Positions 13,001 through 64,000 of a DNA stretch of 64,000 nucleotides are shown in pieces. A program made the translations under genes and the position numbers. The stretch is from positions 32,001 to 96,000 of IMG/VR virus record IMGVR_UViG_3300031555_004942; one strand, written 5' to 3'. Position 1 is the stretch's first letter, and the number at the start of each line of letters is the position of its first letter. The stretch comes from a virus (taxonomy: Duplodnaviria; Caudoviricetes). The notes under the pieces are model-generated. The model ran no database searches. It was not told the DNA's origin and saw only the letters and a list, made by a program, of their open reading frames with translations.

Positions 13001-13009
13001 ATTAAACAG

Positions 13010-43927: not shown

Positions 43928-43965
43928 TTAAAAATTATTATAAAATATGATTGGCAGGTATTGTT

Positions 43966-45390: not shown

Positions 45391-45407
45391 TAAAGGAGAA
45401 AAACGAT

Positions 45408-46061
45408 ATGAAATATAATAAAGGTTTTGAAGACGTTATTACTTTTTTAACTCCTCAGGTGGAAGAGTTTGCAAATTTTAAAATCCCTTCTGTTGAATCA
45501 TTAGAAGAATGGAATGATTTTAAAAATAGAAAAATTTATCTTGATTTTGAAATAGGTGATTATTTAATTACAATTTCAAAACGTATTATTTCATGGAATA
45601 GCGAAGATAAAGATATTCCAAAAAATGAAAGAAAACCAATAACAATATATATTAATTCCCCTGGTGGAAGTTTACAATCATGTATGACATTTATAGATGT
45701 ATTAAAAATGTCAACAACTCCTATTAATTTAATTTGTATTAATGGAGCGTATTCCGCAGCAGGGATGATTTTTATGTGCAAAGGAGAAAACATTGTTAGA
45801 TCTATTGTCCCACATGGAAAAGTTTTGATTCATCAAGGTAGTTTAGGTATGGGTCAGGTTCAAACACATCAATTTTTAGATTTAGCTTCAGATGTACAAA
45901 AAGATGAAAAAAAAGTAAAAGATTATATTTTAGAAAATACAAAAATTACATCTCGTATGTATGATAAAAAGAAGAAAGATGAATGGACTTTAAATGCTGA
46001 AGAATGTATTCTATATGGAGTATGTGATAAAATAATTGAAGATATTTCAGAATTATTTTAA
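45408..46061 (+). CDS. clpP: ClpP-like serine protease
   Basis: YINSPGG, AYSAA, IHQ, YGVCDKI. Confidence 0.85.
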   Translation: MKYNKGFEDVITFLTPQVEEFANFKIPSVESLEEWNDFKNRKIYLDFEIGDYLITISKRIISWNSEDKDIPKNERKPITIYINSPGGSLQSCMTFIDVLKMSTTPINLICINGAYSAAGMIFMCKGENIVRSIVPHGKVLIHQGSLGMGQVQTHQFLDLASDVQKDEKKVKDYILENTKITSRMYDKKKKDEWTLNAEECILYGVCDKIIEDISELF

Positions 46062-46072
46062 AGGGAGATATA

Positions 46073-46339
46073 GTGATGAAAAATACTAATAGAGATTATA
46101 ATCAATCTAAAAAAATAAATAATTTTAAAAAAAATAATTTTAATAATTATTATAAAGATGAAGATGAAGAAAGTCAAGTTTTTTATAAAAAAAAACAAAC
46201 TAAAAAGAAATCAGACATTGAATCTAATGAGTTTGTTTTACAGTGTTTAGAAAAAGAAAAAAACAATGAACGTAGAAAGTTCAAAGAAAAAGAAAAAAAT
46301 AGAAGAAGTAAAAAAGATCGTATTTATGAAGATGATTAA
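46073..46339 (+). CDS. charged low-complexity hypothetical protein
   Basis: 88-aa ORF with RBS. Confidence 0.5.
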   Translation: MMKNTNRDYNQSKKINNFKKNNFNNYYKDEDEESQVFYKKKQTKKKSDIESNEFVLQCLEKEKNNERRKFKEKEKNRRSKKDRIYEDD

Positions 46340-46356
46340 TTAAAGGAGGGTTTTAT

Positions 46357-46722
46357 ATGAGTACAATGAATTTAGTATTAGAATATATAACACAGTATGG
46401 AGCAATTGTAGGAATTATTATTCTTGTTGTTGTAGGATTCATATTAAAAATTCAGCAAATTGTTAATGGAAATCTTGTTGAGTGGCTTGTTGATAAAGTT
46501 GCTTATGCTGAAGCTTATTTAGGATCAGGTACAGGGCAGATGAAATTAAGATATGTGTATGATTTGTTTGTACAAAAAAGAACAATATTAGCTTCTTTAA
46601 TTTCATTTGATAAATTTTCAAAATTGGTTGATTTAGCTTTAGATAAATTTGAAACAATGCTTAAGAATAATAAAGCAATCAAAGAGTGGTTTGAAAAATT
46701 ACAAGAAGAAAAAAATAAATAA
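46357..46722 (+). CDS. putative holin (LL-H-like)
   Basis: N-terminal TM helix; AE..LGSGTG.MKL.YV. Confidence 0.7.
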   Translation: MSTMNLVLEYITQYGAIVGIIILVVVGFILKIQQIVNGNLVEWLVDKVAYAEAYLGSGTGQMKLRYVYDLFVQKRTILASLISFDKFSKLVDLALDKFETMLKNNKAIKEWFEKLQEEKNK

Positions 46723-46818
46723 TATATAGAGCAATTTTATATTGCTCTTAAAAGTATATTATTTATTATAAAATAATGTGTTTTTAAGAACAATATAAAA
46801 GATAAGGAGAATAAAATA

Positions 46819-47367
46819 ATGAATAAAACATCATTGGGAAAAAAATTTGAAAAAAATTTTGGAGATTCTGCGAAACAAGATGGTATTTTTACACATAGGT
46901 TAAAAGATACTGATTTATCATATAATGGTAATTCTGTTTCAAGTTTTACTCCGTCAAATAAATGTGATTATTATTTTTTAGGTAATGTAAAAGATGGTAG
47001 AGGAACTTTATTTGGTGTTGAATGTAAAAGTACTAAATATTCATCTATAGGAATTCAAACATCCCCAGAAGATCCAGAAAAAATGATAAAATATAAACAA
47101 ATTCAAAGTTTGATTGAATTAAGTATGTATGAAGGTATAAAATCAGGTTTTGTATTAAATTTTAGAGATGATGATACAAATATGGAAGATACATATTATA
47201 TTTCTATAGAAGATTTTTCTACGTTTTTAAATGAAACGCATAAAAAATCTATTAATAAAGCTGATTGTGAATTAAGAGGTCTATCTGTGGAATCAAAATT
47301 AAAAAGAACAAACTATAAATATAATGTAAAAAAAATGTTAGAAGATATAATTAGAAAGGAGAGTTAA
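46819..47367 (+). CDS. RecU-like Holliday junction resolvase
   Basis: GKKFE, CDY, ECKST and Q..L motifs. Confidence 0.8.
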   Translation: MNKTSLGKKFEKNFGDSAKQDGIFTHRLKDTDLSYNGNSVSSFTPSNKCDYYFLGNVKDGRGTLFGVECKSTKYSSIGIQTSPEDPEKMIKYKQIQSLIELSMYEGIKSGFVLNFRDDDTNMEDTYYISIEDFSTFLNETHKKSINKADCELRGLSVESKLKRTNYKYNVKKMLEDIIRKES

Positions 47368-47368
47368 T

Positions 47369-48409
47369 ATGGCAAGAGAAACTTTTAAAAAACAGTTTAC
47401 TACTCCTGATATTATAAAACAGATTAATCCTAAAAATGTAAAATTAATGAATTTATATTTAAAAGATAAGAGTAGAAAATGTAGTGATGCTACAATGAAA
47501 GTGTATGCATCTAATTTAAATATATTTTTTTGTTGGAATGTTATATATAATGATAATAAATATTATCCAGAAATTAAAAAAGTAGAATTAAGTGAATTTT
47601 TTGATTTTTTAGTTAATGAATTAAAAATACAAGGAAAAAGGTTTGCTCACTATCGTTCTGTTTTGAGTACCTTATCTGACATTGTAATAAAATATTATGA
47701 TGATGATTATCCTACTTTTAAAAATATTGTAAATACAATTATTGAACCCATTCCAAAAGATGCAGTAAGAAAAAAAACAATTTTAACAGATGAAGAAGTA
47801 GAACTTATTTTTGAAGTTTTGATTGCAAAGGATAGAATACAAGAAGCCTGTTGTTTTGCTCTTGCTGTATATTCTGGAATGAGAATTGCAGAGATTGAAC
47901 AAATGAAAGTCGATATGATTGATAGAGAAAATAGTTTATCGTTTGGAGGAGTTTCTTTACAAACTACTGAAAAAATAAGAACAAAAGGATTTGGAAAACA
48001 AGGAAAGGTTATTTATAAACATATCATTAAAGATTTATTTTTACCTTATTTTGATAATTGGTTAGTAGAAAGAAATAGGATTATTGAAGAGTTAGGAATT
48101 GAAGACCATGGATATCTTTTTATAAAAAGAAATGGTCAAAAAGCTACACAACATGTTATTCGTAATTGGGCAGATAAATGGAGTAAAATTGTAGGTAAAG
48201 ATGTATATCTCCATTGTTTAAGACATAACTTAGTTACATATTTAACAAAATTAGGATTAGGTAGTGATTTTATTATTGCTTTTATGGGATGGTCCTCGGC
48301 TGATATGTACAAAATCTATAATGACCTTGAGGATTCTGAACTTGATTGGAAAGATAGTAAAAAATTACAAGAAATTATCAATAAAAAATTATTAGAAGAA
48401 GATGAATGA
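47369..48409 (+). CDS. tyrosine recombinase/integrase
   Basis: SGMR, K, HCLRH, GW and catalytic Y. Confidence 0.9.
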   Translation: MARETFKKQFTTPDIIKQINPKNVKLMNLYLKDKSRKCSDATMKVYASNLNIFFCWNVIYNDNKYYPEIKKVELSEFFDFLVNELKIQGKRFAHYRSVLSTLSDIVIKYYDDDYPTFKNIVNTIIEPIPKDAVRKKTILTDEEVELIFEVLIAKDRIQEACCFALAVYSGMRIAEIEQMKVDMIDRENSLSFGGVSLQTTEKIRTKGFGKQGKVIYKHIIKDLFLPYFDNWLVERNRIIEELGIEDHGYLFIKRNGQKATQHVIRNWADKWSKIVGKDVYLHCLRHNLVTYLTKLGLGSDFIIAFMGWSSADMYKIYNDLEDSELDWKDSKKLQEIINKKLLEEDE

Positions 48410-48434
48410 TTGTAAGCTTATAGGAGGTGAATAT

Positions 48435-48641
48435 ATGTCTGTAAAAATAAAATTTAAAACAGGAGAAGGTATTCCTAATAAATTAGAGGTGGGAGAACCT
48501 GCTTTTGATACAAAATATAATATTGTATATATTGGTGATCAAAATGGAAATCCTATTTCTTTAAATTCTGTTAATACAGATAAAATTACTCAAGGTGATT
48601 TAATTCTAATTTTAAATGGTGGTACTTCAGAAAATGAATAA
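48435..48641 (+). CDS. small Mtd-N-like fibre-associated protein
   Basis: LEVGEPAFD....YIGD motif. Confidence 0.55.
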   Translation: MSVKIKFKTGEGIPNKLEVGEPAFDTKYNIVYIGDQNGNPISLNSVNTDKITQGDLILILNGGTSENE

Positions 48642-48706
48642 ATATTTACACATAAGATAATATCGAAAAAGATTTTTAAATAGTATTTATTTAAGGAGTG
48701 AAATAT

Positions 48707-49582
48707 ATGAAAAATATAGAAAAATTAATTAACTATGCTTTAACATGGGTTGGATATTGTGAGAAAAAATCAGCACAACATCTTGATGATTTTTCAAAGA
48801 ATGCAGGAAGTGGTAATTATACTTGTTTTGCAAGAGATTATAAAAAACATTCTGGTATTGATGTTCAGGGGCAACCATGGTGTGATGTTTATGTAGATGA
48901 ATGTTTTATAAATGTGTTTGGTGTAGAAAAAGCAAAAGACCTTTTACATGGATTTTCTGCTTATACTCCAACTTCTGCAGATAATTTTAAAAAACATAAA
49001 GAATGGTACAATAAACCTCAAATTGGAGATGTGATTTTTTTTAAAAATTCAACTCGTATTTGTCATACAGGAATTGTTTATAATGTAACAAAAGATAGAG
49101 TGTATACAACAGAAGGGAACACATCAGGAGGAACAGAACTTGAGGCTAATGGAGGATGTGTTGCTAAGAAAAATTATCCATTATCTTATAGTAAGATTGC
49201 AGGATATGGTAGACCTAATTATGAGAAATATGAACAAAAAGAAGTAGTTGTAGAGGAATATATTGATAATGAACCTATAATTTGGGAGCTTCAGAATAGA
49301 AAAATTATTACTAATGTGAATTTATGGAGAAAGAAAATTCAAGAAGATCAGAACATATATTGGCTTTGCAGAAAAGCAATTCAATACATAAGAACTAAAC
49401 AAACTACAGAATATGCCGATGTTGTATATACAAACAAAGATGAGATTTTGTGGGAGTTAAAAAATAGAAAAATAATAACGGATGTTGATTTGTGGAGAAA
49501 ATATATGATTGAGGATCAAAATGTTTATTGGCTTTGTCATAATCTTGTACACTATATGAGGACTCAAAAGAAGGAAGTGTGA
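48707..49582 (+). CDS. endolysin (CHAP domain plus duplicated C-terminal module)
   Basis: PWCD, HTGIV, EGNTS, GYGRP; 56-aa-period repeat. Confidence 0.85.
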   Translation: MKNIEKLINYALTWVGYCEKKSAQHLDDFSKNAGSGNYTCFARDYKKHSGIDVQGQPWCDVYVDECFINVFGVEKAKDLLHGFSAYTPTSADNFKKHKEWYNKPQIGDVIFFKNSTRICHTGIVYNVTKDRVYTTEGNTSGGTELEANGGCVAKKNYPLSYSKIAGYGRPNYEKYEQKEVVVEEYIDNEPIIWELQNRKIITNVNLWRKKIQEDQNIYWLCRKAIQYIRTKQTTEYADVVYTNKDEILWELKNRKIITDVDLWRKYMIEDQNVYWLCHNLVHYMRTQKKEV

Positions 49583-49585
49583 GTT

Positions 49586-49972
49586 ATGTTTTATCTTGAT
49601 AAATCAGAGTATAATAAAAAGTTAAAAAAAATAAAAAAGCAAAATGAAAGTTTTTTGAGAAAACAAGAATTAGCAGAGATGCGATTAAAGACCAAAAAAG
49701 AAAAAAGCAAAAAAACAACTACTAAAATAGTGATGTTTTATTTATTTACTGTTTTAAATTTAGTTCTTATTTATTCTTTGATTGCAATGTGGCATTTTGA
49801 AGATTTGACTCATTTAGGGGTTTTAATTACTGATATTATTGGACAAATTATTGTTTTTTTAGTATATTGTTTAAAATCAGCTAAAGAGAATTCTCAGGGT
49901 GGAATTGTTTATGAACAGGCGATACATAATAATTTAAATTATGAAGATGATAGTTTATTAAAAGATAAATAA
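49586..49972 (+). CDS. two-TM membrane protein (holin-like)
   Basis: Two hydrophobic helices followed by Y..KS..EN. Confidence 0.6.
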   Translation: MFYLDKSEYNKKLKKIKKQNESFLRKQELAEMRLKTKKEKSKKTTTKIVMFYLFTVLNLVLIYSLIAMWHFEDLTHLGVLITDIIGQIIVFLVYCLKSAKENSQGGIVYEQAIHNNLNYEDDSLLKDK

Positions 49973-49997
49973 AATTTCAATTTTATTGTATATTTAA

Positions 49998-50045
49998 CCA
50001 CAATATATTGTGGTTTTGTTATTATATGTATACAATATATTGTAT
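49998..50045. promoter_or_regulatory. tandem NrdR-like boxes, site 4
   Basis: Perfect palindromes CCACAATATATTGTGG (49998) and ATACAATATATTGTAT (50030), 32 bp apart. Confidence 0.75.
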
Positions 50046-50072
50046 AAAAAAGTTATTAAAGGAGAAAAAATT

Positions 50073-50678
50073 ATGAATAAAATGAAATTAAGTGAAGTTA
50101 TTAAATTACACCAAAGTTATCAAATGAATGAAATGACTCATGATGCATTTGTAGAGGCTTTAAATAATGTTTATGTGAAGAGTTATATTACAATTAGAGA
50201 AAAAATTGCTGGTGTGATTAATGTTTTGTTTGGATGTGAGTATGATGAAGAAAGTATTGTCGAAAGATATGCTCAGTTAGAAATGAATAAGTTTTGGTAT
50301 ATTATGATGCTTTATACTGATATTGAAATGGAAGAAGAGTATATTAATGAAGATAATTATGAACTTTTATATCCTACATTAAGTACTGCTATATATACAT
50401 ATGCAATGAATGACTTTAGTGTGACTTTAAGAATTATGGAGCAAATTATTAATGATAACAGATATGGTGAGATGATAGAAATATTTGAATCAATTTCTGG
50501 TACTAATTTTGATGAATTAATTCAAAAAGATAATGAAGTGATGAATGCTTTAAAGGGAGATAAAGAGTTTATAAATAATCTTGTACAGTTATTTAATCAT
50601 ACAGATCCTGCGATTGGTAAAATAAATAAAGAAATTGAAAAATCAGTTGCAAAAGAAATCAAAAAAACAAAAGAATAA
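50073..50678 (+). CDS. hypothetical protein (possible tail chaperone)
   Basis: ATG 50073 after AAAGGAG; upstream of the tape-measure gene. Confidence 0.65.
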   Translation: MNKMKLSEVIKLHQSYQMNEMTHDAFVEALNNVYVKSYITIREKIAGVINVLFGCEYDEESIVERYAQLEMNKFWYIMMLYTDIEMEEEYINEDNYELLYPTLSTAIYTYAMNDFSVTLRIMEQIINDNRYGEMIEIFESISGTNFDELIQKDNEVMNALKGDKEFINNLVQLFNHTDPAIGKINKEIEKSVAKEIKKTKE

Positions 50679-50770
50679 AGTTGTGTGTAAAATAATATTA
50701 TATACAATGATAAGAAGTCATGCTTATGCATGGCTTCTTTTTTTATCTTTTAGGAGGGAGGAATAAAAAT

Positions 50771-51319
50771 ATGGATAATCAAAAAAGATGGCAAGAAATT
50801 AGATCACAATTAGATAAAGCAACAAAGGATTTAGTTCCTAAAAATAGGTTTAAAATTAATGATACAATTATGAAAAAAGCACAAAATATAATGACTAAAA
50901 AATCTTTAAGTTTAATTTATGATGATTATGGAAATCAACTTTATGAAAAAACTTCGGATGTACAAAATTTTATATCATGTAAAAAAACAGGAAGCACATT
51001 TATTCTTGTTAAAGATGATAACAAATTGATAGAAACACAAAACAAAAATGATGAATTTAATACTGACTTTATCTCTTATGATTCTTTAGAAGAAGTTCAT
51101 AAAGATAATGTTAAGTTTGATATGAGTATAGATGAAAATACAGGATTTAAGCGAAATACTGATTATCTATATTTGCAACAAGAAAAAGATAAGAAAAAAG
51201 ATGATGTTATGAGTCAAGGAATTGATGAAATAAAAGATTATATAAATAGAACAGGAAGAAGAGAACTTAATAAAATTGATATAAATTTTGTAGGTTCTAT
51301 TACAGAAAGGGGTATATAA
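50771..51319 (+). CDS. hypothetical protein
   Basis: ATG 50771 after GGAGG. Confidence 0.65.
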   Translation: MDNQKRWQEIRSQLDKATKDLVPKNRFKINDTIMKKAQNIMTKKSLSLIYDDYGNQLYEKTSDVQNFISCKKTGSTFILVKDDNKLIETQNKNDEFNTDFISYDSLEEVHKDNVKFDMSIDENTGFKRNTDYLYLQQEKDKKKDDVMSQGIDEIKDYINRTGRRELNKIDINFVGSITERGI

Positions 51320-51323: not shown

Positions 51324-54300
51324 ATGGATAAAGATATTAAAAAAAATGAAACAACTGGTTTCTGGGATACAAAAAAATGGAGAAATTTTCTTTCAGATAT
51401 GCAAAGAAATGCAGGTTCTTTAGGAATAAATAGTGAAGTAAGTGAATTGATGAAAAAAACTCTTTCAGATAATGCTTTTAAAGCAGATTTTAAAGGAGTT
51501 CAGAAACTTTTTGGGCAAATTCAAGATTTGCAAGGTGGGTTAGATGCTCTTAAAACAATAAAAAATAGTTCTACTAATTTATATAAAGATTTTGTACATA
51601 ATCTTTATGGAACTACTTCAGGAAGTGATTATCTTAAGGAATATACATCTCAACAAATAAAACGATTAAATCAAGTAAAATCTATTGTGAGTGGTCAAGA
51701 AAAAGAATTGACATGGGCAACTAAAATGATAGAAAATGGAACTATTATTGCAGAGGGATATAATCTTGCAGGTAATAAAGTAAGACGTAGAGAATATACT
51801 CAAGGTAAAAGCAAACCTGTTTTTTCTAAAGGTGTTGATTATGATAGAAGTGGTAAAATTTCGGCTTCTTATTCTCCTTATAGATATAATGATGTTAATA
51901 GTAGGGGAGATGTTGTATCAAGAGGGGGTATGTTGAAAACACATTATGATAAAAATGGAACTGTTGTAAATCAAGATATTGTAGATTATAGAACCTCTAA
52001 ATCTATCACTCAACCTGTATCTAAAACATATAGACCAAATCAAGTTCTTAAATCAACATATAAAGGAGTAGGTCCTACAAATAATGATATTTTTATTATG
52101 GGAAATCAGAGATATTCTAAGTTTGTATCAAATAGTCCTATTCAATTAGATAATCAAAAAGATAAATTTGGAAGATACAATGGTGCATTAGAAAGGTTGA
52201 GACAAGGAATTGATGAATCAATTGCTAACATTGTAAATCAAGGAACACAAGCTATTGATAAAATGTCTGTTAGTACTGTAAAAGGAAGTAATTCAAGGAA
52301 GATAAGTACATCTTCTTTTAAAGGAATAGATCCTAAGAAAATGAATTATTTTGATTTTGAAACAATTGGTCAATTAGGTCTTGGCAATTTTATGCCTACT
52401 CAATTTTCTGTTAGACACCAAGATGGTAAAGTTGATAGTAAAGTTTTAAAAATGTCTCAAAAAGGACAGGAGTATATAAGTGGGATTTTAAAAGATTTAA
52501 AATCAGGAAATTGGGGAAATTTGAATAATGATAAACTTAGGGATTTAACACATATGGCAGATTTCTCTGTAATTAACGGAAAGATTGCTACAAAACACGA
52601 AAATTTTTCTGGAATTCGTCCAGATCAAATTACTGGTAATTTATTAGCTAATATAGAATCTGGTTTTGAGATTTTAAAAAATGCTGAAAAATATACTAAT
52701 GGTACTGCCGATGCAAAAAGTGCTATAGAAAATATGTTAAAATCAACTAAAGGGACTATGGTTGGACATAATATTAGATCTTTTGACAATGAAGTATTTA
52801 AGCAATTAGGTGTTGATTTTTCAGATTTTAAATTTTTAGATACTTTAGAAATGGCTAAAAAATATTATAATTATGGAGATATGAGACAACATATTAGTGG
52901 AGGAAAATCAGTACATAAACGATTGATGGGATTTAGTCAATCTCATCTTCAGGATTTCTTCAATATTGATATGAGTGATTTATTAAAACAAGGTATTAAT
53001 CAACATACTGCAGAATATGATACGGAATTAAATAAAAGAATTGCTGAAGCAATGTTTAAAGAAATAAATTCAAATCAAGTAAAAAATCGCTATGTGGGAG
53101 GAAAAGTTGGTTCAGTAAAAGTTGGACAGGTTGGAACAGCAACTAAAGGGCATTTCAGACAACATGCATATGATTTTAAAACAGATGCAATGGGAAAAGT
53201 TTTAAGAAAAAGTGAAAATGAGTGGAATGATTTATTGATGAGAAGTGGTGGGCAATATGCCTATGAAGGAAAAACATCAATAACTGATACTAAAGGTGTG
53301 GCTCGTAATTTTGCTAAATTCTTTGATTTAAATAGTGGTGAATCTGTTTATAAATATGTTGCTGATGATGTTGACCTTGGAAAATTTATGAGTGATATTT
53401 TTAATGGACATTTTTCAACAATAAAAGATACAACAACATCTGCAAAAGCTTCGATTTTTAGAGGAGATACAGGTTATGCTAATTTATCTGCATTAATGTC
53501 TGCATTACAAGGCAATTCTGTTTCTCAGAGACAACAATATAGAGCCAATATGCTTAAAGAAGCAGATGGTGGTAAATTTATTACAATGGCTCAACAAATC
53601 TATAAAGGTTTAGAGGGCAGTGGGTTATCAGATATTCAAAAAAGTTTAGCTTTAGAATTAATGGGTTCAAAAATGGGAATGTCTCAACAAAAAATGTTTT
53701 CTATGAATAATATTAGAGATTTAATTTCTTTAAGTTCTGGAGGTACTGTTAATGGGACAGTTTCTGCTTTGAAAACATTTTTAGGAAAAAATAAACAGTT
53801 CTTTGCGAATTCATTAGAGTATAGTAGTTTGTTTGAAGATATTGATATAGCATCAAGAGGTATGTCAGATTCAGCTATGGGAACGTCAGGAGATAATTTT
53901 TATGGAATTTATCAACGAATTGCTGAACAACTAAGAGGAAGTGATTTTGCAAAACAATATGAATCACAACTTAAATTTAATAAAGATGTGTATAAAAATG
54001 GATATGATATTAATAGTATAGTAAAAAAATCAATTGAAGACGTAAATAAATTTGTTAGTAATACTGGAGAAGATGCTTTGGAAAGAATTTATTCAAGTTC
54101 ATCCAGCGAAATAAAATCAGCTCTTGATGGAAAGTCATTAAATAAAAGATTGGGAAATCTACAAAAATTAGGTGTATTAAAAGATACGTCTATGGTTGCG
54201 ACAAAAAGTATTTCAGAACAATTATCAAAAAGTATAAAAGGGTTACAAGAAAGTGGTATTGGAACACGAATTAGTCTTTCTGGAGATGGTACTGGATTGA

Positions 54301-57300
54301 ATTTAAGCTTATTCGATAGTGCTGATTCAAAAAGTATATCATTTAATTCAGAAGGAAAGATGATATTAGATCCTAATAGATCTGCTTCTGTGTATATTCC
54401 ATTAGATAAAGGAAATGGAATATTAGATGATAATGGAATGTTAAAAACAAATATGATGACTACAACTTATGATGGAGAATCAGGTTTTAAATTAACAACA
54501 TTACAAGATAAAATGATTGAATCTATTACAAGAGTTTTAGATTCAGGTAGTATTAGAAAAAATATGTCGGAGGGTAAATTTTCTGCTATAAATAGTGCTT
54601 TATTTCATGCGAAACAAAATGCGTTGAATTTATCTCCATCGGCAGGTACTTATAAACAAGGTTCTATTTGGAATGACTATGAAGATTCTTTTAAAGTTGG
54701 GGCATCTCCTGAACAAATGGCAATAAGAACAAGTATGGTAAATTTAACAGATGGTATTGTTAATTTGTTAGATCAAAATTATGATATTACTCCAAACAAT
54801 ACAGAATCATATAATTATAGTCAAGCTATTCAACATGTTATGGATTATGCAGCCTTATTATCAAAAGGAATTCCGAATATAAATGATATGATTTCAGGAG
54901 AAAACTCACCATATTCATGGATGATAAAAAATGGTAAAGAAGGAGCTTTTGAAAAAACAACATCTCATTTACAAAAATTAGTATCTAATTTACCTATGAA
55001 TTTAAGTGCAATAAAAGAAGCAGCTTATTTAAATCAAACTTATGGCTTATTAGGGACTGGAGGTTTTGCTCCAGGATTTGAATGGCATCCAGAAGACCAA
55101 AGAAATATTGCTCAATCACATAATAGACTTAAATTGAAAAAAGCAACAGGATATGCTAAAGAGGCTATGAAAAAAGATGTATTTACATCAGACGTTGCAA
55201 AAATTTTTGGTTTTACTCCTCAAGATACTGTTGAAGCAGGATTAGTTACAGAACAGCATGTTTATGAAGGATATAAAAAAATGTATGAAGCTCAAATGCG
55301 AGATGAGGGTAAAATTAAACCTGAAACAGATGCATGGAATAAAGAATTAAAAAGGAGAATGTCTTCATCTCCTATGTTGTCGGTAGAAAATGATAGTGGT
55401 ATTATAGCTAAAGATTTTGCAGATAGTGCTTTTTATTCCATGGAAAAATCTATGACCGTAAATGAAGAAGATTTTTATAAAATTTTAAATGGTAAAACAA
55501 TTCAAAATATTGAAAAATCGGGGTTACATGTATTAGACAAAGGATATAATCTTAGTCAAATGTCTATTGGAAATAAAACTATTCATGATGGAGATATTTT
55601 AAAATCAGTAACAAATAATGGGGATGGCACATATTTCTTAAAAATGGAAGAAATATTGAATATGGGTAAAAATGCTCATTCAAAGGCAATTTCTGGATCT
55701 GGAAATAGATTTACTGTAGGTTTGGCAAATAGTGATTTAATGAAGTATATAGCTGAAGCAGCAGGATTAAGTTCTGTTCCTACAATGTTTTTAAAGAAAA
55801 AGTTAGAGCCAAGTGAAGATGAAAATGGTAATAAAGTATATAAAAATGAGCTTAAACAAAAAGATATTGCAGGAGCATGGAATGAAAGACTTCAAAAAAT
55901 ATTTTCTGATTATTTATCTCAGGGTGGAGATAATAATATACAGAGTTTATATAACAGTTTGCCAAAACAAATGCAAAAATATTTTTCTATATCTGATGGG
56001 CAATTAAAAGGTAGTAGTTATTTTGATGGGACTTCATGGAAAATAAAGGGTTCTAATGAGGAATTATTTGAGAATGAATCAGATATGAAGCATTTCTTTG
56101 ATTTAAATCAAACAGGATTAATTGCACAAACAGCAAAAAATTTAGGTGTAACATATGACCCAAATATGATAAGAACTGCTGTTAATATGGCAAATGAGTA
56201 TTCTTATTTTTCTGGATTTGGATATAATCCAGATGAGGCTGAATTTGATAGTAAACATAAAGTAACTATGAAAGAACAAGATGCTGTTCGTAGAAAAATA
56301 GGAGCATTAAAAACAAAAGATAATACGTTTGAAACATTTTCTAAACATATGGCTGATTATATTACTAAATCAGAGTTACAACTACAACCCTTACGACAAA
56401 AAGCTACGAGAATTGATAAAATAGTAAGCACAGCGGCTAATGCTAACGCAAGTGAAGCAAAAAAAGCTATTGCTTTAGGGGAACGTACTCTTAAAGTTGT
56501 TGATAGATCAATAAATAGTGAATTAGCTGATGATGAAATTAGTTTACATTCATTAGGAAATCATAGAGGAATTACAAAAGATGGTAAAATATCTGAAAAT
56601 GCATGGAAAAATACTTCTGCAGGTATTTTTGCAGAAAGAGCTAAAAAATTAGGATGGGGAGAAGATTATCAGATTGTTTATGAAGGACAACCTGTACAAA
56701 TTACGACAGGTGAAGGTCATGTAATGCAAGGAAGTACTATGGTTTTTGGCAATCATGGTTCAGAAATAAAAAAAGGAAAAGTTGCTCCTTCTTCTTTAGA
56801 TTCGTCTGCGGATAGAGTTTGGAATGCTTTAAAAGCTATAAAGACAGGAACATATCAGGGAGATATCCCCGCTGATGAATATGTTGCAAATCTTTATAGT
56901 TCTTATTTAAAAGATACTTATGATATGACTCATAGTAAAGAGAGTCCTTTATTTCAAGAATTAAATTCTAAAAGATTAACAAATGCGACAGCAGGAAAAG
57001 CTGCAGGTACGAACTATGTTCAAATGAGAGCAGATTTTGGGAATGCATATAGTAATGCAGTTATGGTAAACCCAGAGCATTTAAAAGAAATGCTTTCTAT
57101 TGATAAAAAAAATGTGTCTAAAGAAGATTATAATGCATATAAACAAAACCTACAATGGATGTATGAAGATTTAGTCCCTCAAAATAATCGTATAAAAAAT
57201 ATGAATAGCGTATCTTCTTTAATTGATGGAATTGTTAATGCTGTGACAATTGAAAATTCAACATCTGGACCATTAACAAAAGGATTAGAATCAATGTTCC

Positions 57301-60300
57301 ATCGTTTCCCATCAACTAATGGATTGGATGAGTATTTTGGACAATTATTTGTTTCTAAAGGATTACAAAAAGGAAACATATCTGTAGGAGCAGGTCTTGC
57401 GTTAAGAGAAAACTTAGACTTTGATGGTGATGTTCAATATGCCGCATTATTGGGATTAAATAATAAATTTAAAGATAAAAATGAATGGAATAAATTTAGA
57501 AAAGAAAATACTAAAATAAGAACATGGGATGAGAATATTTCAAAAAAACTACAAGCAAAAGTTCTTAGTGAAGCTAATGTAGAAAATAGTGATGTATATG
57601 ATTCAGAAAATGTTGTAAAAGCATTGCAACAATATAATGAAACAGTGTCAACTCCTGTATTTTCTAAAAAGAATTTTGGAAAAATAGGTGGATTATCTAA
57701 CTTCTCTACTGCTGTTAGAAATAAAATGAAAAATGCAGGTATTGATGAAACTTCAAGTTCTGCAACTATAGAGCAAAAAGCAAATGCAATAATGACACGT
57801 TCTGTATTTGAACTATTTGAACAAGATGCTATAAGTTCTAAAAAAGTTGCTCAACGTATGCTTTCAAAATCAGAAGGAAATGAAAAAGCACTTATTGATG
57901 ATTTAGATAATTTTTATAAAATGTTAAGTAGTATGGATTATTCATCAAAAGGGGCAAAATGGAGTTCTGTATTTGCAGAAGCAGAAAGATTAGGTATTTT
58001 TGGGAAAGATGGAGTTTTTGATACCAGACAAGCTCATAATGCTGTTTCTACTATAGAAGAACTTGGTAGATATCATGGTTATGGTGGTTTAAAAGGTGGA
58101 GTTGCAGGTAGAGCCTTATTAGAAAAAGTATTTGGAAAAGGCACTGTTGGTAGTTTTTATGATGAAAAGGGGAATCTTTTATCTGGAGATGTATTAAAAA
58201 CAGCAGGTGTTGTATCTCGTGATGCTTATTTGAAAGCAGTAACAGCTATTGATGAAAGTTTAGGAAAAGATTCTTTAAGTTCTGCGATATATGATGAAAA
58301 AAATGTTATTGGTCGTGCTTCTCAAAAATCTTATGAAAAAGCTGTAAGAGAATATATGAAAACGTTCTCTAAAAACCATGGTATGGGAAAAATGACAAAT
58401 AAGGACATTTATGCATCGGGAATTAATGGTACAACACTTATTGATAATTTATCGCAAGAGAGTGGACAAACAGTTATTCCTGAGGTTCAACAACAAGGAG
58501 GTCAAGCAGGACTTGCATTATCTCAGGATGCAGTTGCAATAATTGAAGCTATTACAAATGCATTAAATGGACAGACTGCAGCATGGAAAGAAAATGGAAT
58601 GGCTGTAGGAAATGCTATAAAAAATACAAATGCAATGACTGTAGCTCAAAGAAAAAATGCAGAATTAATGAAAAATCCTGTTAATGCAAGAAAGGCAGGG
58701 TTAAATGTTCTTCCTGGTGAAAACATTATGGAAAATTATGATAATATTGTTCATTCTGCATTAAGTGGCTCAGGTCAATCTATGTTTACTGATGAACTTA
58801 TGTTTAGAAATATAAGAAAAGCAGAATTAGACCAAGAAACTCATAAATATTTTGTTGATGGTAAACAGCAAAATATTGATTTCTCATTATCTCAAGCAGG
58901 AATTTTAGGAAGAGAAAATAAAACTTTTACTGAATCTTTTGCGACTTCAGAAAGAAAACAGTTATTTAAACAATATTTAAATGGTGAAGATATAAAAATT
59001 AGAAATTCTTTATCTGATATGCCTACTGTTTATTCTAGTGCTAATGGCAATCAAATTAGAGATTTAAGAGATTTAGAAGATAAGGCAGGATATTATTTCC
59101 AAGATATCGCTGCAACTGAAAGAGGTAGAATATTAGGTGATGTTACTCATGATATGTTAGATCATTATTCTCAGTTGAGTAATACTCGACTTAAAAGTAT
59201 GACTCCTGATAGTTTTATTTCTCAATATTTCGCAGGAAATGTTGCAGGTACTAAACTTAATGATTTATCAAAAGAATGGAGTTTAGCTGGAGGAACAGGT
59301 TCTTTGTTAGAAAATCTTCAAGGAATTTCAGGAAATACTTTTAAGGCTATAAATGATCTTAGTATTGTAGGTATTGATAAATTATTTAAAGATGCAAGTA
59401 AAAATAATTTATTGTCTCAATCCGAACAATCTTTTGTGGGTGAAATATATGATCCAGTTACAGGAGCTTTAAAAACATTTGGTGGTACATTTGATGCTAT
59501 TTTAAAAAATATGGTAGTAGACTATAAAACTGCTAAAAATCCTGATGTAAATAAATTTGCTGTACAATTGGAAATGTTATTAAGGACTATTGAATCCTAT
59601 GCAGGTTCTGGATTAAATGATAGTGCAGTGCAAGAATTATACTCGCAGATATCTAAAGCAGGTATTGCAATTCATAATACTCAAACAGGTAATACTTCTG
59701 CAATACAATTAACAAGACCAAGTAATGCTGCTTTGGCAAAAACAATGAATTATATTCAATATAGTCAATCTTTGCAAGATATGTCTGAAATTAGAGATCC
59801 TAATTTTGTAGATCTTGTATGGACAAAAGGAGATCTTAGAAGATTTTCAAATAATAAATTACAAAATGCATATAGAAATATTAGTGAATTCTTATATCAA
59901 GGGTCTACATCTGGTGGCACATCTGAAGAGAATTTTCAAAAATTTTTATCTGGTTTTGCAAAAGATGGATTAACTTTCAAAAAGAATAAAGGAACTTCGG
60001 AAAGTAATAAAGGAACTTCTTCTTGGTTTGTAGATGATAATGGACAACGTATGGTTATGAGCGTAGATTTTGCTAATGGTAGAGTGTCAAGTCCAAGTTC
60101 ATTAAAAGTTAGAGAGCTTATTTCTGATGAAAAAGGAAAATATTTAAGTGATGAACAAACATACTCTCATTATTTAAATGAATATTTAAAAGCATATCAA
60201 AGATATAATGATTTCAGTTTGTCAGATGAGGAACAAAGACACGCTACAGCTAATTTTAATAAAATGCGTGAAAAACTTTTCAACTTTGAACAACAAGGAT

Positions 60301-63300
60301 TTTTAACACCTGAAAAAATCAATGAATTAAGACAAGCTCATTTAGATAGTCCTGAAGCAGAAAAGATGTTGAAAGCAATAGGAGAACCTCCAAAAGAAGC
60401 ATCTCAAAGGAATTATGTAAGTGCATATCAGAGATTATCAGAAGCTCAAAATAAAATAAGATATCAGGAAAGTTTACCTACAGCTTTAAGAGATTCAAAA
60501 GTTTATGATACAGAGATAATGAATGCTCAAAAAGCACAAGCTGATTTAGATAAAGCTCGTCTTGAATTGTATTCAAAAGAAGGTGGTGGAGTTAGAAGTG
60601 ATGTAGAAGTACAACAATTGCAACAAAGATTGCAAGATTATGTTAATTTCCATCCTTCAATGTTAGGAAAAATAATTCCTCAAGAAGCATCTTATGAAGA
60701 TATTACAAGATTAGCAAATGATGATAGTAAAAGTGCAGGATATAATAAAATTTTATCTGACAGATTAGCAATAATAAAACAACTTGTTTCTGCACAAAAT
60801 GAATTAAATTCTCTTGTTAATAGTGGAGACAAAAAAGCTATTACTAATGCAACAGCAAAAAGAAATCAAGCACGAGCAGAACTTGACAATATAAATAAAA
60901 TTATTGGTGAATTAAATCCTTATTTAATAGATGCAAATAAACAAATTGTTTCTGATACAATGCAAGAACAAGATAAAATATTATCAGGCGAATCAGCAAA
61001 TCTTGAAAAAGGTACAAAAGAGTATGAGCAAAGAAAGCATATGGTTGAAGATTTTAAAAAATATAATAAAGAAATATTAGATTTGCAAGAAAAACAACAT
61101 GCTATTCAAACTAAAATGAAACAAGGAAAAGCAACAACTGATGATTATGCTCAACTTCAACATATACAAAAACAAATTTCTGATACTCAGGCAATTATGC
61201 CTACACTTGATAAAGATGGTTTTATTTCTGATAAAACAGGAGCTAAGTTTAAAACAACTGAAGCTCAACAAGCTGATATTCATCATACATTCGCTCAACA
61301 AGAAAGAGATTATAATAAGCGTATAGCTGAACAAACTATGCTTGCAAGTGGTAAAAAAGGGCTTGGAAATTATTTAAAGAATTTAGGCAAACAAACAATT
61401 GGATATTTTAGTATGTCGATGTCCTATAAAATTATAGGTATGATTACTCAAATCTTCTCTAGTATAATTCAGAAAACAAAAGAATTTAATAAAACAATGA
61501 TTGATATTCAAATTGTTACGAGAAAATCATCTAATGAGGTTGGAGATTTAGTTAAAGAGTATAACGGATATGCTAAAGAATTAGGGGTAACAACACAGGC
61601 TGTAGCAACTTCTGCAAACCAATTTTTACGTATGGGTTATAATGCTCAAGAAACTGCAAAGTTAATTGAAAGTTCAATGAAATTATCTAAATTGGGTATG
61701 ATCGAAGCAGGTCAAGCGGCTGAATATCTTACATCTGCAATAAAAGGATATCAATTATCTGCTCAAGAATCTGAGAAAGTTGTTGATATGGCTACAACTC
61801 TTGATATGAGTTATGCAGTCGATGCAGGATATATTTTATCAGCAATGTCAAGAACAGCTACTTCTGCTAAATTAGCAAAAGTTGAAATGTCTGAATTACA
61901 ATCAATGATTGCAGTTATTGGTGAAACAACTCAGAAAGATGCATCTGTTGTTGGTGAGAGTTTAAAAACTGCATTTGCAAGATATGGTAATGTAAAAGCA
62001 GGTGTTGCAGCAAAAACTAATTTATCTGATTTAGATGAACAAAGTAAAGATGAATTAGAAGCTGTAAATGATATTGAAAGAGTATTAACTACATATAACA
62101 TAGATGTTAGAGAATCCGATAATAAAACATGGAGAAGTTATTCTAACATAATGAAAGATATTAATGAGCAATGGGCAAAATATTCTGATTATGAAAAGAA
62201 TGCGATTGCTACTGCTATGTTTGGTACAAGACAGAGAGAAAATGGATTAGTTGTTCTTGAAAAATATAATGAAGTATTAAAAGCAAATGAGAAGGCTATA
62301 AATTCTGAAGGAACAGCAAATAAAAAATATGAAACATATCTTACAGGTGTAGAAGCTGCTCAAAATAGATTTACTGCGACATGGGAAAAATTCATCAATA
62401 ATATTAATGGTAGTGATGGATTAAAAGTATGGTATAATCTTTTAACACAGATTGTTGAAATGATGAATCATTGGAAATTAATCTTAGGAGTAATTGTTGC
62501 AATGAAAGCTCCACAGATCTTTACTGCCTTTGGTAAGTTTTCTAATTCTTTTGGTGGATTTTTTACTGGTGCAAAAAAGACATGGGGATCTGCAACTTCT
62601 GGTTTTAAAGAAAAAGGATGGTCTGGAGTTTGGCAAGGAACAAAACAAGCTTTTAAAGATAGTTGGGGCGACATTGAGACCGATGCTAAAAATAAATTGA
62701 GTTTAAAAGCTGAAGTTCATGAAGCTAATAACCTTTTAGCACAAATATTACAAACACTTCAAGGAAAAGATATTGATGGGGATAATGATTCAAATACTAC
62801 ACAATCTGCAGGTTCAAAATCTTCAACACAAAATAATTTAAATAATCAAAATGTTCCTATTTCATTATTAGGTAATGGTCAATCAAATCCAAGACCAAGT
62901 GGGGGAGTTAATATAATTCCATCAGACGGAAGTGTTATTCCAATGGGTGGAACTGTAAAAAATGTTCTTTCTTATGGAAATAATCCAATATTATTAGGAA
63001 ATGGCTTTGTTCCTCAACCTGTAGGAAATGGTATTATGTCATTACCTCAAGGTAATATTATAACAGATCCATCATTAATGTTACCTCCTGCAATAAGTGG
63101 AGGTCCTGTAGGTAAAGCTATTTTACTACCAAAAACAGCAGGGGGAGTTAATGTAATTCCATCAGATGGAAGTGTTATTCCGATGGGTGGAACTGTTGGT
63201 AGTGTTATTGATAAAAAGAAAAAAACAACCAATAAAAAAGAAAAAGCAGAAGCAAGAGCTAAAAGAGAACAAGAAAAACAAAAAATTAAAGATGCACAAA

Positions 63301-64000
63301 AAAGAAATAAAAAAGCAGAAAATGCTCGTAAAGAATATAATAGAACAATAGATAAAGGTGGACCTTTTACAGAAAAAGATAGGGGATTTTTTAAAAACAA
63401 AAGAGAAACAATTAAAAACATGCCACATACTTCTTTGTCTTCTACCTTAAGAAAAACAACTATTGATGCTGATATTGCAAGAGTAGAAGATAATATTGAT
63501 TCTATGTTTATTGGTAGTCATCATAAAAGACAACAAAGATATAATGAGTTATTTCATGCAAAACGATATAGTAAACGTAGTTTTAAACCAACAAAAATAA
63601 AAAATGTTCAGAGAAATGCTTTAATTCCAACAACAGGGATAGCTGTTAGTGAAAATACCAACATTCCTAACAAACAAGGATGGTTTAGTCAAAAATGGCA
63701 TGGATTTAAAGACAGATTAAGAGAAGAAATTGCTTTTCGTGAAGCACGAGGAGAATACAGAGTCGGAAAATTAAGACAAAAAATAAATAATCGTTTTGGG
63801 CATAATAAAGGATTTACAGATATTCCATGGACTAATGATCCTTCATTAATGTTACCTCTTGGACAAAATACTAATAACATTCCTCAAAAACAGGGATGGT
63901 TAAAAAAAGGTTGGAATAAAACAAAATCCGCTATTTTAAAGCCATATAAATTTTTAGACAATAAAGTAAAAAATAGTCAGGCGGCTGCAAATATGGCATC
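51324..64000 (+). CDS. giant (>4,200 aa, 3'-truncated) tape-measure polyprotein: DEDDh exonuclease + two-barrel RNA polymerase + PD-(D/E)xK nuclease + tape-measure domain
   Basis: One frame from ATG 51324, open at every point translated and at the window end; absence from the track fits a missing stop. Motifs DFETIG/GHN..FD/HTAEYD; RFP...NLDFDGD; GTFD/DYKT/QL; AKELGVTT..VA.SA..F.RMG. Confidence 0.85.
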   Translation, partial: MDKDIKKNETTGFWDTKKWRNFLSDMQRNAGSLGINSEVSELMKKTLSDNAFKADFKGVQKLFGQIQDLQGGLDALKTIKNSSTNLYKDFVHNLYGTTSGSDYLKEYTSQQIKRLNQVKSIVSGQEKELTWATKMIENGTIIAEGYNLAGNKVRRREYTQGKSKPVFSKGVDYDRSGKISASYSPYRYNDVNSRGDVVSRGGMLKTHYDKNGTVVNQDIVDYRTSKSITQPVSKTYRPNQVLKSTYKGVGPTNNDIFIMGNQRYSKFVSNSPIQLDNQKDKFGRYNGALERLRQGIDESIANIVNQGTQAIDKMSVSTVKGSNSRKISTSSFKGIDPKKMNYFDFETIGQLGLGNFMPTQFSVRHQDGKVDSKVLKMSQKGQEYISGILKDLKSGNWGNLNNDKLRDLTHMADFSVINGKIATKHENFSGIRPDQITGNLLANIESGFEILKNAEKYTNGTADAKSAIENMLKSTKGTMVGHNIRSFDNEVFKQLGVDFSDFKFLDTLEMAKKYYNYGDMRQHISGGKSVHKRLMGFSQSHLQDFFNIDMSDLLKQGINQHTAEYDTELNKRIAEAMFKEINSNQVKNRYVGGKVGSVKVGQVGTATKGHFRQHAYDFKTDAMGKVLRKSENEWNDLLMRSGGQYAYEGKTSITDTKGVARNFAKFFDLNSGESVYKYVADDVDLGKFMSDIFNGHFSTIKDTTTSAKASIFRGDTGYANLSALMSALQGNSVSQRQQYRANMLKEADGGKFITMAQQIYKGLEGSGLSDIQKSLALELMGSKMGMSQQKMFSMNNIRDLISLSSGGTVNGTVSALKTFLGKNKQFFANSLEYSSLFEDIDIASRGMSDSAMGTSGDNFYGIYQRIAEQLRGSDFAKQYESQLKFNKDVYKNGYDINSIVKKSIEDVNKFVSNTGEDALERIYSSSSSEIKSALDGKSLNKRLGNLQKLGVLKDTSMVATKSISEQLSKSIKGLQESGIGTRISLSGDGTGLNLSLFDSADSKSISFNSEGKMILDPNRSASVYIPLDKGNGILDDNGMLKTNMMTTTYDGESGFKLTTLQDKMIESITRVLDSGSIRKNMSEGKFSAINSALFHAKQNALNLSPSAGTYKQGSIWNDYEDSFKVGASPEQMAIRTSMVNLTDGIVNLLDQNYDITPNNTESYNYSQAIQHVMDYAALLSKGIPNINDMISGENSPYSWMIKNGKEGAFEKTTSHLQKLVSNLPMNLSAIKEAAYLNQTYGLLGTGGFAPGFEWHPEDQRNIAQSHNRLKLKKATGYAKEAMKKDVFTSDVAKIFGFTPQDTVEAGLVTEQHVYEGYKKMYEAQMRDEGKIKPETDAWNKELKRRMSSSPMLSVENDSGIIAKDFADSAFYSMEKSMTVNEEDFYKILNGKTIQNIEKSGLHVLDKGYNLSQMSIGNKTIHDGDILKSVTNNGDGTYFLKMEEILNMGKNAHSKAISGSGNRFTVGLANSDLMKYIAEAAGLSSVPTMFLKKKLEPSEDENGNKVYKNELKQKDIAGAWNERLQKIFSDYLSQGGDNNIQSLYNSLPKQMQKYFSISDGQLKGSSYFDGTSWKIKGSNEELFENESDMKHFFDLNQTGLIAQTAKNLGVTYDPNMIRTAVNMANEYSYFSGFGYNPDEAEFDSKHKVTMKEQDAVRRKIGALKTKDNTFETFSKHMADYITKSELQLQPLRQKATRIDKIVSTAANANASEAKKAIALGERTLKVVDRSINSELADDEISLHSLGNHRGITKDGKISENAWKNTSAGIFAERAKKLGWGEDYQIVYEGQPVQITTGEGHVMQGSTMVFGNHGSEIKKGKVAPSSLDSSADRVWNALKAIKTGTYQGDIPADEYVANLYSSYLKDTYDMTHSKESPLFQELNSKRLTNATAGKAAGTNYVQMRADFGNAYSNAVMVNPEHLKEMLSIDKKNVSKEDYNAYKQNLQWMYEDLVPQNNRIKNMNSVSSLIDGIVNAVTIENSTSGPLTKGLESMFHRFPSTNGLDEYFGQLFVSKGLQKGNISVGAGLALRENLDFDGDVQYAALLGLNNKFKDKNEWNKFRKENTKIRTWDENISKKLQAKVLSEANVENSDVYDSENVVKALQQYNETVSTPVFSKKNFGKIGGLSNFSTAVRNKMKNAGIDETSSSATIEQKANAIMTRSVFELFEQDAISSKKVAQRMLSKSEGNEKALIDDLDNFYKMLSSMDYSSKGAKWSSVFAEAERLGIFGKDGVFDTRQAHNAVSTIEELGRYHGYGGLKGGVAGRALLEKVFGKGTVGSFYDEKGNLLSGDVLKTAGVVSRDAYLKAVTAIDESLGKDSLSSAIYDEKNVIGRASQKSYEKAVREYMKTFSKNHGMGKMTNKDIYASGINGTTLIDNLSQESGQTVIPEVQQQGGQAGLALSQDAVAIIEAITNALNGQTAAWKENGMAVGNAIKNTNAMTVAQRKNAELMKNPVNARKAGLNVLPGENIMENYDNIVHSALSGSGQSMFTDELMFRNIRKAELDQETHKYFVDGKQQNIDFSLSQAGILGRENKTFTESFATSERKQLFKQYLNGEDIKIRNSLSDMPTVYSSANGNQIRDLRDLEDKAGYYFQDIAATERGRILGDVTHDMLDHYSQLSNTRLKSMTPDSFISQYFAGNVAGTKLNDLSKEWSLAGGTGSLLENLQGISGNTFKAINDLSIVGIDKLFKDASKNNLLSQSEQSFVGEIYDPVTGALKTFGGTFDAILKNMVVDYKTAKNPDVNKFAVQLEMLLRTIESYAGSGLNDSAVQELYSQISKAGIAIHNTQTGNTSAIQLTRPSNAALAKTMNYIQYSQSLQDMSEIRDPNFVDLVWTKGDLRRFSNNKLQNAYRNISEFLYQGSTSGGTSEENFQKFLSGFAKDGLTFKKNKGTSESNKGTSSWFVDDNGQRMVMSVDFANGRVSSPSSLKVRELISDEKGKYLSDEQTYSHYLNEYLKAYQRYNDFSLSDEEQRHATANFNKMREKLFNFEQQGFLTPEKINELRQAHLDSPEAEKMLKAIGEPPKEASQRNYVSAYQRLSEAQNKIRYQESLPTALRDSKVYDTEIMNAQKAQADLDKARLELYSKEGGGVRSDVEVQQLQQRLQDYVNFHPSMLGKIIPQEASYEDITRLANDDSKSAGYNKILSDRLAIIKQLVSAQNELNSLVNSGDKKAITNATAKRNQARAELDNINKIIGELNPYLIDANKQIVSDTMQEQDKILSGESANLEKGTKEYEQRKHMVEDFKKYNKEILDLQEKQHAIQTKMKQGKATTDDYAQLQHIQKQISDTQAIMPTLDKDGFISDKTGAKFKTTEAQQADIHHTFAQQERDYNKRIAEQTMLASGKKGLGNYLKNLGKQTIGYFSMSMSYKIIGMITQIFSSIIQKTKEFNKTMIDIQIVTRKSSNEVGDLVKEYNGYAKELGVTTQAVATSANQFLRMGYNAQETAKLIESSMKLSKLGMIEAGQAAEYLTSAIKGYQLSAQESEKVVDMATTLDMSYAVDAGYILSAMSRTATSAKLAKVEMSELQSMIAVIGETTQKDASVVGESLKTAFARYGNVKAGVAAKTNLSDLDEQSKDELEAVNDIERVLTTYNIDVRESDNKTWRSYSNIMKDINEQWAKYSDYEKNAIATAMFGTRQRENGLVVLEKYNEVLKANEKAINSEGTANKKYETYLTGVEAAQNRFTATWEKFINNINGSDGLKVWYNLLTQIVEMMNHWKLILGVIVAMKAPQIFTAFGKFSNSFGGFFTGAKKTWGSATSGFKEKGWSGVWQGTKQAFKDSWGDIETDAKNKLSLKAEVHEANNLLAQILQTLQGKDIDGDNDSNTTQSAGSKSSTQNNLNNQNVPISLLGNGQSNPRPSGGVNIIPSDGSVIPMGGTVKNVLSYGNNPILLGNGFVPQPVGNGIMSLPQGNIITDPSLMLPPAISGGPVGKAILLPKTAGGVNVIPSDGSVIPMGGTVGSVIDKKKKTTNKKEKAEARAKREQEKQKIKDAQKRNKKAENARKEYNRTIDKGGPFTEKDRGFFKNKRETIKNMPHTSLSSTLRKTTIDADIARVEDNIDSMFIGSHHKRQQRYNELFHAKRYSKRSFKPTKIKNVQRNALIPTTGIAVSENTNIPNKQGWFSQKWHGFKDRLREEIAFREARGEYRVGKLRQKINNRFGHNKGFTDIPWTNDPSLMLPLGQNTNNIPQKQGWLKKGWNKTKSAILKPYKFLDNKVKNSQAAANMA
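62901..63196 (+). repeat. 56-bp direct repeat, two copies (GGVNxIPSDGSVIPMGGTV), inside the giant ORF
   Basis: 62901-62956 versus 63141-63196, three mismatches. Confidence 0.85.

Follow-up and report, generated by a model that had tools for sequence, protein, structure and literature searches.

A single gene in the 64,000-nucleotide stretch analyzed here (the window), which comes from an uncultured gut phage, encodes a giant tail protein that carries, as shown by computation on its predicted structure and its sequence, an RNA polymerase (RNAP) fold whose catalytic triad is intact. We consider it fairly probable, by analogy with gp96 of the Thermus phage P23-45, that the enzyme is a virion RNAP which reaches the cell within the tape measure; because the RNAP lies ahead of the ruler part, the phage probably brings an enzyme of its own for transcription into the cell. 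The open reading frame (ORF) begins at 51324 on the plus strand, preceded by the ribosome-binding-site-like AGAAAGGGG, and meets no stop before the window ends, which bears out the single frame of more than 4,200 aa reported in an earlier note on this DNA. Positions 51324–64000 encode aa 1–4225 of 7,175; the remaining 2,950 aa (8.85 kb) lie past the window edge, and the whole gene (G000:C1:83324–104851) ends at window-equivalent position 72851. From N- to C-terminus, the protein comprises a DEDDh exonuclease, the RNAP, a PD-(D/E)XK nuclease, a tape-measure core of the SPbeta YomI type, and a lysozyme. The source record is a linear viral sequence of 117,109 bp, with 27% GC and about 67% completeness. 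The window DNA was found in animal faecal metagenomes, and no RNA dataset carrying it was present among the matches listed.

The RNAP core spans aa ~1117–2232. When an AlphaFold2 model of aa 1100–2290 (pLDDT 77, pTM 0.81) was compared with 48,161 chains, the top nine matches were β/Rpb2-type subunits aligning to model residues 18–582 with Z-scores of 10.4–12.1 (among them Pol I/III/IV, plastid, AR9, phiKZ, ASFV, vaccinia, and Xanthomonas β-type chains), and the next five were β′/Rpb1-type subunits aligning to model residues 606 to 1133 with Z-scores of 7.7–8.3. A second structural comparison gave Z-scores of up to 14.0, for an archaeal-type β chain. All PDB matches listed by Foldseek were RNAP subunits, a double-psi β-barrel (DPBB) being predicted at the motifs as the earlier note had proposed to check, and the best viral model match was an unannotated "minor tail protein" (E 3e-32).

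The β/Rpb2-like half (aa ~1117–1681; 54672–56366, plus strand, as are all RNAP features given here), delimited by the matches to β-type chains (Z 10.4–14.0) and by secondary structure, carries R1260/Q1264, E1355/D1357, and K1454/R1462. Its motifs in the translated ORF are FEWHPEDQRNIAQS (aa 1252; 55077), ENDSG (aa 1355; 55386), and SKAISGSGNR (aa 1453; 55680, with the lysine at 55683 and the arginine at 55707). The model places a β-rich insert in this half where cellular enzymes carry the flap, and, taken with the sequence, it places a second, β-type barrel bearing two basic residues N-terminal to the catalytic barrel. Between the barrels is a clamp-like connector (aa ~1683–1874; 56370–56945) that is devoid of cysteines and matches the clamp of archaeal RNAP (3qqc) over model residues 584–775 with a moderate score (Z 6.4, rmsd 5.2, 150 aa); the alignments to Rpb1/β′ chains begin at chain residues 13–21, which are N-terminal clamp residues. 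The predicted catalytic DPBB (aa ~1887–2043; 56982–57452) contains R1994-x-P1996, within HRFP (aa 1993; 57300, with the arginine at 57303), followed by N2030-x-D2032-F-D2034-G-D2036, within NLDFDGD (aa 2030; 57411). A DxDxD triad preceded by R.P is what defines the two-barrel superfamily; isolated DPBB structures align to model residues 788–944 with an rmsd of 2.0–2.4, and the catalytic block (model residues 891–970) has a pLDDT of 84–94. The helical region after the barrel (57453–58019), within which the β′/Rpb1 alignments reach model residue 1133, carries IGGLSN (aa 2121) and EQDAISSKK (aa 2166).

The motifs cited in the earlier note were all found, either exactly where it placed them or no more than a few codons away, and its parallel between HRFP followed by NLDFDGD and the NRAP...NADFDGD of β′ held across the family, in which R.P and N.DFDGD are kept at a median RNAP identity of 18%. 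The pattern R.P-(30–45)-N.D[FY]DGD is expected about 1e-5 times by chance in a protein of such composition, so the RNAP motif is more than chance. In an alignment of 13 homologues (~20% identity), R..Q, K...R, K, R.P, D.DGD, G..SN, and Q.[AS]IS[SA]KK are invariant or near-invariant, K1454 and R1462, eight apart, being nearly invariant; judged by sequence, these are the positions expected for an RNAP active centre. DMTHSKESP (aa 1867; 56922), which had been compared with β′, is present but is conserved in the family at its lysine alone. IGGLSN and EQDAISSKK, described as bridge-helix- and trigger-loop-like, lie in conserved helices inside the β′ alignments, and from sequence and model the G..SN and QDAISSKK helices may be the equivalents of the bridge and trigger helices. 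The description of the enzyme as apparently complete applies to a core that stretches between the fork region of β and the C-terminal end portion of β′; for the β N-terminal lobe and protrusion, aa 600–1100, where these could lie, gave at best a weak β match (E 0.09).

A profile built from 31 family sequences matched vaccinia Rpo147 (E 5e-7), phiKZ β′ (E 2e-5), AR9 β′ (E 0.01), and also bacterial β′ chains, all at the catalytic barrel, and four of 13 RNAP family members matched PHROG 2987 ("RNA polymerase beta subunit"; best E 1.9e-5). The RNAP region of the window alone had no match in phmmer, Pfam, PHROG, or PDB sequence searches; a word-indexed homologue search and a single-sequence viral scan with it returned no relatives, and its ESM Atlas feature matches (0.89–0.91, to unnamed viral clusters) fell below the recognition threshold. 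Fold, profile, and family conservation agree with the central claim of the earlier note, that a two-barrel RNAP in β-then-β′ order is fused to a tape-measure core.

An exhaustive phmmer search with the RNAP region yielded 26 relatives, and profile-led scans added 19 further viral loci, 4 proteins, and 4 MAG contigs; the RNAP lineage is present in near-complete phage genomes of ~120–220 kb. The fusion was counted in 30 proteins gathered by the RNAP region alone, the query included. In 27 of these the tape-measure core is in frame with the RNAP (several read TAG as Gln), which argues that the fusion is not an assembly artefact. The three exceptions are L006 and L017, with internal stops or a frameshift, and L012, with a free exonuclease-RNAP ORF. 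The stop or frameshift between the RNAP and tape-measure parts that the earlier note had named as the sign of a false fusion is absent from the window, and independent contigs agree. These contigs are identical to pieces of the giant gene, none spanning all of it; a variant strain, ~95% identical, shows compensating indels at 58394–58416, and elsewhere there are only low-depth indels in single contigs. In this variant strain, 21 of the 30 listed substitutions in the β half fall at third codon positions. Distances between family members in the RNAP and in the tape-measure protein correlate (Mantel r 0.45, p 0.0005), and the two trees share several clades, not all; this is consistent with long co-inheritance and is proof of nothing more.

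Several features of the relatives stand apart from these counts. L006 has an in-frame TGA (L006:13786–13788) near the clamp/barrel boundary, where the window genome has Gly, and L017 an in-frame TAA in the RNAP connector (L017:6467–6469); these may be errors, pseudogenes, or true splits. In L012 (L012:4023–26574), the free exonuclease-RNAP ORF (2,305 aa) lies between giant ORFs of 1,986 and 3,213 aa that are without Pfam match, and it may represent the same enzyme in an unfused state, serving as an ejection protein. The tape-measure gene is often interrupted inside PhageMin_Tail (L008, L009, L011, L013, L014, L015, L026, L027, and others), with DUF7487 or HNH ORFs filling the gap in several cases; from sequence, these interruptions are probably self-splicing introns in an essential structural gene. 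TAG is a sense codon (code 15-like) in L011, L018, L019, L024, L026–L028, and L030–L036, and others in the family, the window gene included, are open under code 11. Among cultured phages, tblastn with four family members gave no significant match (best RP31/RP12, E 0.6), and the family profile, run without a positive control, gave none to Phass-1, PMBT24, TR-TP1, MT835481, or BUCT082. A literature search of incomplete coverage found no report of this RNAP-tape-measure family.

The RNAP is flanked by two predicted nucleases, neither of which the earlier note remarked on. The first, a DEDDh (DnaQ-like) 3′-5′ exonuclease domain (aa 338–591; 52335–53096, plus strand), combines a predicted DnaQ fold with the ExoI/II/III residues, all of the catalytic residues (D344, E346, D488, H561, D566) being present and the motifs invariant in four homologues. 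Its model matches Exonuclease X (Z 14.9, rmsd 2.4, 152 aa), a DNA polymerase exonuclease domain (Z 14.0), and epsilon (Z 13.9); a PDB profile search with the domain gave no significant match, the assignment being settled by the fold comparison. The second (aa ~2550–2810; 58974–59753, plus strand) is a predicted PD-(D/E)XK nuclease of the RecB/AdnB/Cas4-like kind with D2724, D2733, and K2735. Here the assignment is made at the family level from sequence: PF12705 is matched by six of nine aligned members (best E 1e-8), the D and D.K are invariant in the aligned family, and the family profile matches UvrD-type helicase-nuclease chains (E 0.005), the window's own copy giving no direct Pfam match. 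Both nucleases are patchy across the family, undetected in many members, and the RNAP is constant.

Downstream lies the tape-measure core (61266–62582, plus strand), identified by Pfam PhageMin_Tail (PF10145; aa 3416–3634, E 4.6e-25), PHROG 4211 (aa 3315–3753, E 1.9e-37), and tblastn, whose matches in cultured phages, SPbeta YomI among them, belong to the tape measures of Bacillota phages that are SPbeta-like or related to these; the TP901/SPbeta-type domain that the earlier note placed after the RNAP is confirmed. The core ends in a hydrophobic segment at aa 3719, and another occurs at aa 4255. Between them, aa 3820–4220 (~62770–63800) are of low complexity, rich in Pro/Gly and Lys/Arg with short internal repeats. 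Beyond the window, aa 5849–6031 form a VgrG3-like lysozyme-type domain (L001:8868–9416; PF21277, E 4.5e-36), which, by its family, is presumably muralytic; NlpC/P60-like and SH3-like segments suspected in the C-terminal part had no Pfam support. The giant gene is preceded on the same strand by an SPbeta-like tail module (42352–51319) with a probable tail tube, an integrase-fold gene, a CHAP protein, and two ORFs in the tail-chaperone position; the gene order is that of L007 and L014, in which the corresponding genes bear YomX/YomW/YomU Pfam labels. The module also contains, at 43951–46061, a nuclease of the β-CASP metallo-β-lactamase fold followed by an ORF at the position of the relatives' Clp-type protease. 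By sequence, then, the protein has the core, gene position, hydrophobic segments, and wall hydrolase of a TP901/YomI-type tape measure.

The genome encodes a second RNAP, of the YonO/QDE-1 type (14208–17117, plus strand; 969 aa, with GADFDYD; PF05183 E 2e-13), whose product matches SPbeta-like phage and c-st proteins and whose gene was found in all five relatives tested. It has no detectable similarity to the fused RNAP. YonO transcribes SPbeta late genes (PMC5467207); by analogy, the YonO-type RNAP is presumably the non-virion enzyme for late genes, which leaves an early role for the fused RNAP. The need for a virion enzyme is weakened by the promoters. Twelve perfect TTGACA-17-TATAAT promoters occur in the genome, two heading the leftward small-gene run and one directly before the operon with the YonO-type RNAP (a sigma-A-type consensus match at 13079–13107, plus strand), such that host RNAP could start early transcription there unaided and is probably able to start some of it. 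No dedicated promoter motif for the virion RNAP was found in this ~67%-complete genome, the missing third of which may hold the pre-early region. We infer a low-GC member of the Bacillota as host from the promoters, the SPbeta-like module, and three of four MAG bins.

Other elements were noted in the same regions. In the leftward run, six perfect sigma-A promoters point backward (2866, 4303, and 7519 in the window; 14176, 15906, and 23847 in G000:C1; all plus strand), each sitting behind the start of a leftward gene, at a distance of ~40 nt (132 nt for 7519), and reading into a hairpin. A short ORF is faced by five of the six (~41–73 aa; two sequence families), and the units are, from their sequence, probably antisense-RNA/small-peptide cassettes; a similar geometry occurs in the relative G005. 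We rejected them as promoters of the virion RNAP, since five of the six fit such cassettes and the arrangement is not a general feature of the family. A ~90-bp intergenic element, made up of TTTTAT..TATA and then two similar ~16-bp boxes, occurs four times (18745–18860, 26815–26925, 43850–43960, 49970–50075), each time before a late gene block and once directly 5′ of the chaperone/tape-measure genes; the element is a candidate late-gene promoter or operator. Three 28-nt direct repeats with 42-nt spacing (12890–13001), immediately past the leftward promoter in the divergent pair 13038/13079, are a possible operator or origin iterons.

In the mechanism that we propose, the giant gene codes for an SPbeta-like siphophage tape measure whose N-terminus is extended by a single-chain β-β′ RNAP between two nucleases. 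The virion would contain the whole protein, its C-terminal part acting as the ruler and its N-terminal 3,300 aa lying toward the head. Upon infection, the C-terminal lysozyme would open the wall, the hydrophobic segments would anchor or line a DNA channel in the membrane, and the RNAP, which with its clamp-like region would be too large when folded, would pass the tail tube at least partly unfolded and then refold. It would transcribe the genes that enter first, whether on its own or together with host RNAP, and the YonO-type enzyme would later transcribe the structural genes. The computation shows the fold, the fusion, and the second RNAP, whereas packaging, ejection, activity, and targets are all drawn by analogy from gp96 of P23-45. 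Besides the host-type promoters, the free exonuclease-RNAP ORF of L012 and the in-frame stops in L006 and L017 weigh against this reading. More speculatively, the optional nucleases might cut back the transcript or the end of the incoming DNA, or be directed against the DNA of the host or of competitors. The fullest form of the proposal is one that we consider doubtful: a widespread family of gut Bacillota-type siphophages would have independently evolved a tail-threaded, sigma-less, clamp-bearing β-β′ RNAP that refolds on the cytoplasmic side, with the fused nucleases preparing the genome end as template, so that one polypeptide measures the tail, pierces the wall, processes DNA, and starts transcription.

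Tape measures are often processed, and the RNAP could be active with the fusion serving as a device for co-translation or packaging: the N-terminal part would be cleaved, then act as a head ejection protein or, unpackaged, in middle or late transcription in the same cell. The free exonuclease-RNAP ORF beside other giant ORFs in L012 fits such an arrangement, as do the Clp-type protease gene in the relatives' tail module and the tail of ~1 micrometre that a 7,175-aa ruler would imply at an inferred ~0.15 nm per residue. Against these stand the RNAP held within full-size gp96 in P23-45 virions, the non-virion YonO-type RNAP that the phage already has, and the retention of the fusion in 27 of 30 homologues, and we regard cleavage or non-packaging as unlikely. 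Less likely again is that the domain descends from an RNAP but serves something other than early-gene expression: drawing DNA into the cell, priming replication, or joining the nucleases in acting upon genome ends or host nucleic acid, for instance. Host-type promoters already cover the early operons, no specific promoter motif was found, and the flanking nucleases point to DNA processing, but these nucleases go undetected in many members in which the RNAP is constant, and the core retains what transcribing enzymes have: both barrels, conserved acidic and basic residues, and a clamp-like region. A chance motif, a dead relic, or an assembly chimera of two genes, to which the lack of a direct Pfam, PHROG, or PDB sequence match for the window's RNAP region and of a single independent contig across the whole gene might point, is effectively refuted by the confident fold and structural matches, by ~30 independent homologues with the same fusion, and by independent contigs that reproduce pieces of the gene with compensating or low-depth indels only. 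Delivery within the tape measure remains the most likely reading. If true, it shows that tape measures can act as delivery vehicles for large enzymes. Through this family, the minimal single-chain β-β′ RNAPs also gain a lineage that had gone unannotated, being unrecognized by Pfam and recorded as "minor tail protein", and a soluble fragment of aa ~870–2330 offers a possible test of sigma-less initiation by a cellular-type core.

Among known enzymes, the best structural and profile matches are the multisubunit β/β′ RNAPs (cellular, vaccinia/ASFV, phiKZ, AR9), with which the window RNAP shares the β-then-β′ order and the R.P...N.DFDGD spacing. Unlike them, it is one chain of ~1,100–1,400 aa within a tail protein, lacks Zn-binding cysteines, and has a short stretch between the catalytic loop and the G..SN helix, with no alpha, omega, or sigma seen. 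The crAss-like phage enzyme phi14:2 gp66, which the earlier note had put forward for comparison, is also a large virion-associated single-chain two-barrel RNAP, but it is a podovirus ejection protein unfused to a tape measure, and its structural match is weak (Z 4.9), the multisubunit chains being closest instead. Nor is the fused RNAP of the YonO/QDE-1 type, as it has no PF05183 match and a β-rich insert and matches QDE-1 (Z 7.1) less well than β chains. SPbeta itself has the same tape-measure core (YomI), orders its tail module alike, and likewise encodes a YonO-type RNAP ahead of its virion genes; the cultured SPbeta-like phages tested had no match to the fused RNAP in searches of limited sensitivity.

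The closest parallel is gp96. The earlier note knew of no description of an RNAP within a tape measure, but Chaban et al. 2024 have already shown that the N-terminus of the 5,002-aa P23-45 tape measure gp96 is an active RNAP that sits in virions within full-length gp96 and occupies pre-early genes (PMC10770324; PDB 8H2M/8H2N). The fusion also occurs in P74-26, G20c, and TSP4, and the flat, clamp-less shape of gp96 was proposed to be an adaptation for tail passage (PMC10770324). Published only for P23-45-like Thermus phages, the principle is thus known; the RNAP lineage described here, its clamp-like region, and its flanking nucleases appear to be undescribed. Both proteins are giants with a single-chain two-barrel RNAP bearing DFDGD N-terminal to the tape measure, a hydrolase domain and hydrophobic segments downstream, and a second, non-virion RNAP in the genome. 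In sequence, however, hhalign gave a probability of 2% over 57 columns, covering the catalytic loop only, and hmmsearch was not significant; in structure, gp96 scores Z 6.1/5.9 against the window RNAP, compared with 10–14 for β chains. Whereas gp96 is clamp-less with a short connector, the window RNAP is modeled with a ~190-aa clamp-like connector and a β-rich insert in its β barrel; the window protein further differs in its SPbeta YomI-type tape-measure core and two extra nucleases, and the P23-45 RNAP pair arose by duplication, unlike the two dissimilar RNAPs here. By both sequence and model, the window protein is not a detectable homologue of gp96, and it is predicted to depart from the clamp-less form. 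From the absence of detectable homology, the lower structural Z-score, the clamp-like connector, the other type of tape measure, and the dissimilar second RNAP, we judge it quite likely that the fusion arose independently of gp96, the divergence being extreme; two apparently unrelated families, this one with a predicted clamp, would then have converged on the strategy, and the implication would be that the enzyme makes the passage in an unfolded state.
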